NCBI RefSeq assembly: GCF_056712565.1
Contig: NZ_JBWXXM010000002.1
DNA length: 64,000 nucleotides
Strand: one strand, 5' to 3'
From: a plasmid
Shown: positions 57,396 to 59,746 of the stretch, piece after piece
Position numbering within the stretch: the first letter of the stretch is position 1
How the letters are laid out: the number at the start of each line of letters is the position of its first letter
Translations under genes and position numbers: made by a program
Notes under the pieces: model-generated
What the model saw: only the letters and a program-made list of their open reading frames with translations
What the model was told of the DNA's origin: nothing
Databases searched by the model: none

Positions 57396-57590
57396 TCAGC
57401 CCGTCCGCAGGAGTTTTCGTCCTTCAGTCAACAAATGCACTACCTTTTTTGAGTCTCCACTTTCCAGAGCAGAAAACACGTTACCGATTCTACCAACAGC
57501 TTGTATCTGAGTGATAACCCCAGTCTTGTAATCATCTAGGATCCCTGACAGGAAAGCGTTCAGTTTTGTCTGTTCGCTTAGCGAAAGCAT
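57396..57590 (-). CDS. 3' portion of a small gene split by IS21-family insertion
   Basis: joining the flanks (59734..59729 with 57590 downward) reconstructs ATG TCC ATG CTT... with GGAGA RBS. Confidence 0.3.
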   Translation of the reverse strand: MLSLSEQTKLNAFLSGILDDYKTGVITQIQAVGRIGNVFSALESGDSKKVVHLLTEGRKLLRTG

Positions 57591-57653
57591 GTATGTCAAC
57601 GCCACGATGTTTGACCGTTATTTGCCATTTTCATGCCCGCTAAAATACTTTCG

Positions 57654-58454
57654 TTACTGATGCTGTCCGCTTTTCACCATTTCATCATCACTGATTGGCG
57701 TTGTGTTTTTGGTCAGCACTCCAGCTTTACGTTTCTCTTTTAACCGGTAACTCTCTCCTTTGATATTCAGCGTGGTTGAGTGATGTAGCAGCCGATCCAG
57801 GATCGCTGTTGCCAGCACGTGATCTCCGAACATTTCTCCCCAGTCTGCGAACCCTTTGTTTGACGTCAGTATGATGCTCGCTTTTTCATATCGACGGTTC
57901 AGTAGCCGGAAGAACAGGCTGGCTTCCTCTCTGTTCATCGGCAGATAGCCTATTTCATCCAGGATCAACACCCGGGCATAACTCAGTTGCTGTAGCTGAC
58001 GCTCCAGCCGGTTTTCCTGTTTCGCTTTCATCAGTGTCGCGATCAGTCTGTCCAGTGGCATAAACAGTACCCGATGTCCCGCATCCACCGCTTTCACGCC
58101 AAGAGCTATGGCCAGATGCGTTTTTCCTACACCAGGAGGTCCCAGCAGGATCACGTTTTCGCTGCGCTCCACGAACGCCAGACCAGCCAGTTCCCGAACA
58201 ACCTTACGGTCGATGCCCGGCTGGAAGGTAAAGTCGAACTGCTCCAGCGTTTTGACCCACGGCAGACGAGCCTGCTTCAGCCTGGACTCCATACCCCGCT
58301 GATGCCTGCCGTTCCATTCCTGCTGTAGCGCCATGCACAGGAACTCCCGGTAGTTCAGCTCTTTTTTAGCTGCCTGTTCCAGCAGGCTTTCAACGTGATA
58401 ACTCAGATGCTCCATTTTCAGGCGACTCAGCAGGACTTCCAGCTCATGCATCAC
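57654..58454 (-). CDS. istB: IS21-family helper ATPase IstB
   Basis: Walker [12 protein letters not shown], Walker B ILDEIG. Confidence 0.85.
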
Positions 58455-59623
58455 AACAGCTCCTCATAGGTACTCAGTGGCCGATGTTCCACCTGACTGA
58501 CCTGCTGCCAGAGCGGGGCGTGATGCTCCGGCACTGTCTGCCAGCCAGACGATGCCGAACAGAGGCGATGTGAGGCCACCAGTTTCTCATTACTGTAGAT
58601 CCGCAACTCGTCATCCAGCGATATTCGTATCGATACCGGCTGACCACACAGCGCTTCGGGAACGCTGTAACGATTACCACCAACCTCGATATAGCTGTCC
58701 CAGGACACATGGCGGATGTCGAAGTAACTGGTATCGAAGTCCGTATCGGGTAACGGCTGCAGATGTTCCTGCTCCAGCGCGAAGCGCTGTTCCGGCGTTT
58801 CTTTGAACTGACGAAGCTCCCGTTTGTCAGCCACATCGGCTATCCATTGCTCCAGTTGTTGATTGACATGAGTGAAGCTGTCGAACCTGCGGTACCGGAC
58901 GAAGAAGTTCTCCTTGAGGTATTTCACCATCCGCTCAACCTTACCTTTTGTTCTGGCCCTGCGTGGACGGCATGCCCGTGGCAGGAAGTTATAGTGGTCA
59001 GCCAGCAACAGGAATCCGGAGTTGAACACGACTTTCCCGTTGTTATTCTTCAGCACCGCAGCCTTCTGGTTATCAACCAGCACCGTTTTCACACAACCAC
59101 CGAAGTAGCGGAAGGCGCGAACCAGTGATTCGTAGGTATGCTCAGCATCCTGTTTTGGGGCAGCGAAGACATGAAAGCGGCGGGAGAACCCCAGCGTATT
59201 AACCGCAAAGTTAACTTTGCACCGTTGCCCGGCAACTTCCACCTCAACTTCGCCCCAGTCGTGCTGGAGCTGGTATCCGGGCTGAGTTTCGAAGCGAACT
59301 GTTCTTTTTGACGGACGCATTTTACGTTTGGGCTGGATGTAGTAACGCAGCATGGAACGTCCGCCCGTATAGCCCATTGCCTTAATCTCCGCGAAGATAA
59401 CCTCGCTATTCCAGACATTCTCTGCCAGGCGCATGTCGATGTAATCCATAAACGGTTTCAGCTTAACCATTTTGTGGCGGGTTTTTCTGGCTGGCGGTTC
59501 AGGGTATTTGAGGTAACGTCTGACCGTTCGTTCAGAGCAACCAATCTGAGTCGCAATATCGACAATGTACGCGCCCTGCTGGCGCATTTGCTTTATCATG
59601 TAAAAGTCCTCTCTGCTCAGCAT
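58451..59623 (-). CDS. istA: IS21-family transposase IstA
   Basis: 390 aa; HTH N-terminus, DDE region; ATGA overlap with istB. Confidence 0.85.
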
Positions 59624-59746
59624 GTTGATGTCCTTTTTGGTGTGAGAACCTTAAGGAAACAACATGTTGGGTGGAGCGGACAATCCAAATGGTGAATTAC
59701 CGTCTTATATCACTGGCGCTAACATGTAGGACATTTTTTCTCCATT

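Follow-up and report, generated by a model that had tools for sequence, protein, structure and literature searches.

An IS21 insertion splits a conserved small gene, the last of its cluster, on an IncHI2-type plasmid and most likely ends its production

Does the insertion sequence (IS) present on a 64,000-nucleotide stretch of plasmid DNA (contig NZ_JBWXXM010000002.1 of NCBI RefSeq assembly GCF_056712565.1; this whole stretch is hereafter called the window) lie between genes, or has it disrupted one? An earlier note, made from the letters alone, had placed an IS21-family insertion at 57590–59731, near the third codon of a small gene directly downstream of a gene encoding 439 amino acids (aa), and had proposed that the last gene of a methyltransferase operon was probably inactivated by it. 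Our analysis makes it highly probable that IS21 has split the conserved last gene of this cluster, most likely ending its production. The element is indeed present, but the interval first given for it was 4 and 7 bases too wide at its two ends: the true interval is 57594–59724, and the excess consists of the target-site duplication on the left and of the duplication plus three more bases on the right. The element and its parts are as follows.

57594–59724, minus strand: IS21, complete, 2131 bp, from an end-to-end alignment with the IS21 of RP4; the sole copy in the window.
57590–57593, no strand: target-site duplication TGTA beside the istB-distal end, read directly; empty sites hold a single TGTA.
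59725–59728, no strand: target-site duplication TGTA beside the istA-proximal end, read directly; empty sites hold a single TGTA.
57594–57604, plus strand: right terminal inverted repeat, istB-distal, TGTCAACGCCA, read directly.
59714–59724, minus strand: left terminal inverted repeat, istA-proximal, TGTTAGCGCCA when read inward, from direct reading and comparison with RP4.
59672–59682, minus strand: internal copy of the terminal motif (L2-type repeat), TGTCCGCTCCA, 43 nt inside the left end, matching the terminal consensus at 9 of 11 positions.
58451–59623, minus strand: istA, intact, encoding a 390-aa DDE transposase with an internal Met9 start present (NCBIfam, Pfam).
57654–58451, minus strand: istB, intact, encoding a 265-aa AAA+ helper ATPase (Pfam, NCBIfam).

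The copy of RP4, the prototype IS21, served as the reference for the isoform call. Over the full length (2131 of 2131 bp) the two elements are collinear without insertions or deletions (indels) and differ by 29 substitutions, i.e., they are 98.64% identical; IstB is the same as that of RP4 (265/265) and IstA (389/390) carries a sole change, T385A. Under the ISfinder convention, elements count as isoforms above 95% identity in nucleotides or above 98% in protein, and the values found here exceed both. The element is accordingly identifiable as IS21 itself, in a complete copy, on what reads as the backbone of an IncHI2-type resistance plasmid. Copies that are 100% identical to it over exactly these 2131 bp occur in other contexts, in six plasmid records and several chromosomes, and some of the records carrying identical copies contain IS21 matches at five to seven places. 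The earlier note had seen no clean target duplication beyond CAT; this did not hold, as an exact TGTA repeat flanks the element at 57590–57593 and 59725–59728. Target duplications are 4–5 bp for IS21 itself and up to 8 bp within the family, and the TGTA found on both sides is of the expected kind. The termini of the RP4 copy are the same, and it too is flanked by a duplication of 4 bp, in its case ACGT. Because the terminal repeats each abut TGTA, the element comprises exactly 2131 bp, and its boundaries at 57594 and 59724 are confirmed by three results, namely the RP4 alignment, the identical copies elsewhere and the match to the empty site described below.

The ends and the genes show features of the family. 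The terminal repeats are imperfect, as had been noticed before: the terminal 11-mers TGTCAACGCCA and TGTTAGCGCCA are identical at 9 of 11 positions, the two ends can be aligned over about 50 bp with small indels, and the element has the 5′-TG ... CA-3′ ends typical of the group. Multiple terminal repeats, L1/L2 and R1/R2, which are binding sites of IstA, are a trait of the IS21 family (PMC10122671). This layout is also seen in the element in the window, where the internal copy near the left end has its counterpart in an aligned TGCCCGCT block about 41 nt inside the right end; terminal-motif matches of this 9-of-11 type are scarce in the interior of the IS (3 in 3662 positions). The two genes lie on one strand, istA followed by istB, with the ATG of istB overlapping the TGA of istA. 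IstA scores 284.9 bits with NCBIfam transpos_IS21 (cut-off 160) and matches Pfam rve, HTH_23 and Mu-transpos_C_2; the rve match, together with T385A as the only difference from RP4, suggests that the catalytic DDE triad is in place. An IstA isoform without the first eight residues is known (PMC10122671). IstB scores 302.6 bits with Pfam IstB_IS21 and 301.9 bits with NCBIfam IS21_help_AAA (cut-off 200), and its translation shows the Walker A motif GPPGVGKT and the Walker B motif LILDE. One of the substitutions falls within a terminal repeat: window position 59721 (IS position 2128, the fourth base of the left repeat) is an A, whereas the copies of RP4 and AP045807 have a G, so that the left repeat reads TGTTAGCGCCA here versus TGTCAGCGCCA in RP4. 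The A-variant copy is found, 100% identical, in several Escherichia coli and Escherichia fergusonii plasmids and chromosomes. Since it is identical in several records, some with five to seven IS matches, the variant seems to be active and the base change seems not to block transposition.

What did the site look like before the insertion? Alignment with IS-free homologs, proposed earlier as a check, was carried out with a reconstructed site in which the IS was removed and the flanks were joined with a single TGTA (565 bp). It is matched over 564 of 564 bp at 100% identity among the matches listed, for example by pSA186_MCR1, whose empty site contains one TGTA. Of the 289 records of the E. coli complete-genome set that match the reconstructed site, 279 do so at 99% identity or more. 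The empty-site matches are almost all on plasmids, of about 150–370 kb, and the empty-site and related records that were inspected are either typed as IncHI2A or are mcr-1 plasmids of 210–260 kb. Between window positions 53532 and 63019, the only break in collinearity with pSA186_MCR1 is the IS. The identity of the element, its boundaries, the duplication and the empty-site allele are thus directly established by these comparisons. The insertion is apparently a recent event: the flanks match empty sites at 100% identity, as the IS does other copies, and the two repeats of the duplication agree exactly.

The next question is whether a gene was hit. Two pieces of coding sequence border the element.

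59729–59743, minus strand: stranded 5′ end of a 67-aa gene, comprising GGAG (59740–59743), ATG (59732–59734) and codon 2, read directly.
57396–57589, minus strand: 3′ remainder of the 67-aa gene, beginning at base 2 of codon 4 and including the stop, from the list of open reading frames (ORFs) and direct reading; with the left TGTA and IS sequence it makes up a 69-aa ORF considered below.

The earlier note had held that joining the flanks restores an in-frame small ORF with a ribosome-binding site immediately after the 439-aa gene (a DUF1173 gene, see below), and direct reading bears this out, including the split near the third codon. On the restored minus strand, the TAA stop of the DUF1173 gene is followed by a gap of 12 nt, AATGGAGAAAAA, which contains GGAG, and then by ATG TCC TAC A, where the insertion falls, and TG CTT. 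The restored ORF of 67 aa (204 bp) encodes MSYMLSLSEQ...LLRTG, with GGAG 5 nt before the ATG, and the duplication corresponds to its nt 7–10, all of codon 3 plus base 1 of codon 4. With the duplication counted once, the gene comprises window positions 57396–57593 and 59729–59734. The reconstruction had been said to fail if the true boundaries lay such that this ORF did not exist; the boundaries do move, by 4 and 7 bases, and the ORF persists.

It might be argued that this ORF is no gene at all and that the IS landed in intergenic DNA between convergent genes. In RefSeq the ORF is unannotated in pSA186_MCR1, no feature lies under it in 18 listed 100%-identical records, and neither the 67-aa protein nor its family has a match in Pfam, NCBIfam, PADLOC, PHROGs or a PDB sequence profile search. 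We nevertheless regard this explanation as very improbable. The ORF is conserved at full length in other plasmids, and copies at 98.5% (an IncHI2 lineage), about 60%, 41% and 31% identity are annotated there as hypothetical proteins; full-length copies were found by tblastn in 1,811 plasmid records. Orthologues on IncHI1A/IncHI1B plasmids are about 60% identical, with the gene order kept (methyltransferase, 55–56-aa gene, DUF1173 gene, 67-aa gene). The ratio of nonsynonymous to synonymous substitution rates (dN/dS) of the 67-aa gene is 0.13–0.16 between IncHI2 and IncHI1 and 0.05 between two IncHI1 copies, the GGAG stands 5 nt before the ATG, and a profile of the family matches 252 clusters. 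These comparisons directly establish that the ORF that was hit is conserved under purifying selection, and on such evidence it is to be read as a genuine gene.

The family to which its product can be assigned has not been described before and comprises some 250 clusters, in plasmid and mobile-element contexts. The profile, built from seven members, retrieved 252 representative clusters (at 50% identity), mostly stand-alone proteins of 60–90 aa; a few matches are repeats within giant proteins (P0051, of 6670 aa, has 18 such stretches). The consensus of family alignment A2 (57 proteins; P0044–P0183) reads ...FLxxVLDDYKxGxIT...A...GR.... AlphaFold predicts with confidence a three-helix bundle (pLDDT 83.5) with helices at residues 7–25, 31–47 and 50–66 and residues 1–6 outside them, for which a Foldseek search against the PDB gave no significant neighbour, the matches being to designed mini-proteins with E > 0.7. 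Distant family members have a resolvase or parAB next to them, or are part of series of small genes that lack annotation and have H-NS, ParB_N or PIN neighbours. These neighbourhoods are plasmid-like and uninformative on function; since they differ, the family is not tied to the methyltransferase.

What, then, did the insertion do to the gene? In the sequence of events that we propose, a transposition-competent IS21, supplying the DDE transposase IstA and the AAA+ ATPase IstB that loads target DNA, inserted into the IncHI2-type backbone via a 4-bp staggered cut, as is typical of IS21, at nt 7–10 of the 67-codon gene, in the same orientation as the gene cluster. The start codon, the GGAG and three codons are left on the DUF1173 side and the remaining 64 codons lie 2.1 kb away behind istA and istB, separated from their promoter and with no usable ribosome-binding site, which most likely leaves the 67-aa protein absent or present only in trace amounts. 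Because the insertion removes both the linkage to the promoter and the GGAG site, we infer that the protein is lost, a conclusion that we hold to be likely, and the inactivation proposed in the earlier note is reasonable in this respect. No other gene of the cluster is affected, and there is none downstream on which polarity could act, because the gene that was hit is the last one.

A hybrid promoter at the junctions was considered and rejected. Read outward on the minus strand, the six bases at the very edge of the right end are TTGACA, which is the −35 box reported for this end of IS21 (PMC10122671). This TTGACA has no usable −10 at 16–18 nt, however, and the flank has no −35 for the TATAAG of the left end; a promoter scan listed no minus-strand site at the right junction, the candidate −10 hexamers having been judged by eye. 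A promoter starting from the right-end TTGACA would in any case fire inside the ORF.

Loss of the protein has to be weighed against the alternative that the insertion leaves the gene active, with a near-full-length protein made from transcripts that read out of istB, either as a 64-aa form starting at Met4 or as a 69-aa form, MALTY-MLSL..., starting at a GTG. Downstream of the body of the IS there are two in-frame starts, the GTG in the right IS end (69-aa ORF 57396–57605) and the ATG of codon 4; an intact run of 64 of the 67 codons, with the stop, continues the frame of the former, and the stretch from the istB stop to the end of the IS contains nothing resembling a terminator. Several points speak against a complete loss: istB read-through transcripts could carry the 64 intact codons, either of the two starts could initiate weakly, and a Met4-started protein would, by the predicted structure, keep the whole fold, residues 1–6 being outside the helices; nor is the N-terminal part of the family conserved beyond the IncHI plasmids. 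The operon structure rests on layout and spacing, and neither the plasmid collection nor the E. coli RefSeq genomes yielded this precise insertion allele. On the other side, no recognisable ribosome-binding site precedes either replacement start: pairing with the 16S rRNA tail is predicted at −2.4 kcal/mol for the GTG and −1.5 for the codon-4 ATG versus −6.4 for the native start. The istB stop is 48 nt upstream of the GTG, which makes translational coupling unlikely, and the promoter of single-copy IS21 has been described as weak (PMC10122671). Continued activity of the gene is, therefore, an unlikely outcome, and we retain the loss of the 67-aa protein as the preferred reading.

The gene cluster in which the 67-aa gene is the last comprises three further genes and a hairpin.

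61317–62744, minus strand: C5 cytosine DNA methyltransferase, first gene of the cluster, 475 aa per RefSeq (Pfam DNA_methylase, E = 3.8e-75).
61089–61256, minus strand: 55-aa gene, matching phrog_25588, of unknown function.
59747–61066, minus strand: 439-aa DUF1173 gene, intact, directly upstream of the interrupted gene (Pfam PF06666, E = 4.6e-39; WP_000078514.1 in IncHI2 plasmids).
57386–57410, minus strand: terminator-like hairpin with 9 base pairs, 6 being G-C; it overlaps the stop of the 67-aa gene and lies between convergent genes.

The four genes lie on the same strand with gaps of 60, 22 and 12 nt. From the shared strand, the gaps and the terminator-like hairpin we infer an operon with the 67-aa gene as its last member, although it is uncertain whether the hairpin, whose tail is poor in T, functions as a terminator. 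A type II restriction-modification operon, which would pair the methyltransferase with a cognate restriction endonuclease, was considered. In PADLOC the methyltransferase fits the ‘orphan methyltransferase’ model best, and DUF1173 has been described as structurally related to PD-(D/E)XK nucleases but without an active-site signature (PMC3045609); for these two reasons we do not adopt that reading. The 55-aa and 67-aa proteins likewise match no defence model in PADLOC.

Some observations on the surroundings may be added. The cluster is faced by a convergent pair of genes (window 55300–57332) of which one encodes a DUF4942 protein and the other a coiled-coil protein of 401 aa; the latter has weak PADLOC matches to LmuB and JetC, which probably reflect the coiled coil only. 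An IS1 copy occupies 52770–53537, with its inverted repeat from 52770, and a 257-aa ORF (52023–52796) ends in residues encoded by this repeat (GDAANLLI*), which indicates that this gene was truncated by IS1. As the collinearity with pSA186_MCR1 ends at about 53532, IS1 marks the boundary of a rearrangement or deletion. In the IncHI2 record NZ_MT499884.1 the 4-kb backbone around the locus is covered in three pieces over 4041 bp, suggesting an insertion or duplication of about 41 bp.

Is the site itself special? Besides the insertion in the window, other IS21-family insertions were found in the 67-aa gene, which add up to four independent events within 204 bp.

IS21: nt 7–10 of the 67-aa gene, in the orientation of the cluster; the window.
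ISSso4: nt 48–52, duplication ACAGG, in the opposite orientation; CP038454.
IS21::IS26 (IS21 interrupted by IS26): nt 97–100, duplication CTTG, in the same orientation; AP045807.
ISEc62: nt 165–168, duplication CAAA, in the same orientation; CP042895 and MW719568.

The three insertions of IS21 or ISEc62 all share one orientation. Searches with 7.3 kb of backbone plus IS revealed, in both collections, no same-orientation insertion of either element outside the 67-aa gene, and a query with the IS inverted revealed none within 2 kb on either side in the plasmid collection. Such confinement within the surrounding 7.3 kb would be expected if the site were non-random, i.e., if the 204-bp gene were a preferred target of IS21-type elements, chosen by IstB for its structure as deformable DNA near the end of convergent transcription, or if loss of the 67-aa protein were selected in IncHI2 hosts. 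IS21 is reported to have no strong sequence specificity but possibly a preference for deformable DNA (PMC10122671, PMC11208146), and kink-prone DNA may be a hotspot for it (PMC11208146). The disruptions are not limited to this family: the protein database contains about 11 IS-fusion variants of the 67-aa protein and several frameshift variants, the fusions that were traced being due to IS1203 (at five positions), IS26 and ISSso4. When the 55-aa gene was searched in this way as a control, however, about 10 disrupted or fusion variants came up, also with IS1203, IS26 and ISSso4, so that the control is disrupted about as often, by the same elements; ISSso4 has hit the DUF1173 gene as well. The IncHI2 plasmid CP059722 carries an identical IS21 elsewhere while this site is empty, and there is no composition anomaly at the target, whose GC content of 42–49% is like that of the flanks. 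The events are few, moreover, and the search was centred on this locus. We therefore consider either form of a non-random site, a preferred target or a selected loss, improbable. Recurrent targeted inactivation was set aside in view of the similar variant count of the 55-aa control. The control, the hit in DUF1173, the empty site of CP059722 and the absence of a composition anomaly point to DNA that is dispensable and belongs to a very heavily sequenced plasmid family rich in IS elements, not to a special hotspot. The run of three same-orientation insertions of IS21 and ISEc62 is a weak lead. IncHI2 records with IS hits in the cluster (67-aa gene, DUF1173 gene or 55-aa gene) are AP045807, CP042895, CP038454, MT929284 and CP043545.

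As far as the element is concerned, this is a known IS behaving in a known way and thus ordinary mobile-element biology: a clean textbook case of IS21 insertion, its boundaries fixed to the base and its empty site matched in other plasmids, which in itself matters little. It does draw attention to a conserved gene of IncHI1 and IncHI2 plasmids that is absent from many RefSeq annotations. Natural knock-outs, by IS21, ISEc62, ISSso4, IS1203, IS26 and frameshifts, show that the 67-aa and 55-aa genes are dispensable for plasmid maintenance, and the IS21-type hits within a single gene of 204 bp form a small natural data set on the target choice of IS21.

Among known systems the closest is the IS21 of RP4/R68 (also known as IS8), which likewise measures 2131 bp and has the same termini, istA (390 aa) followed by istB (265 aa) with the stop/start overlap, and a 4-bp duplication; it differs by the 29 substitutions, one of which lies within the left terminal repeat. 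ISEc62 and ISSso4, IS21-family elements of Enterobacteriaceae, have the same two-gene layout and were inserted into the same 67-aa gene on other IncHI2 plasmids. The nucleotide sequence of ISEc62 is, however, clearly diverged (a 3.2-kb query that included the flanks scored 90.4% overall), and ISSso4 is larger (about 2.64 kb, with an IstA of 511 aa), too diverged to be found by megablast and, in CP038454, oppositely oriented. For IS5376, whose IstA and IstB have been studied by cryo-electron microscopy, the likeness is drawn from its description: it has the same family architecture, and the mechanism, with a tetramer of IstA holding the two ends in synapsis and IstB decamers bending the target (PMC10122671, PMC11208146), is presumably shared, but its target duplications are 5 bp (PMC10122671), in contrast to the 4 bp of both the element in the window and the IS21 of RP4.

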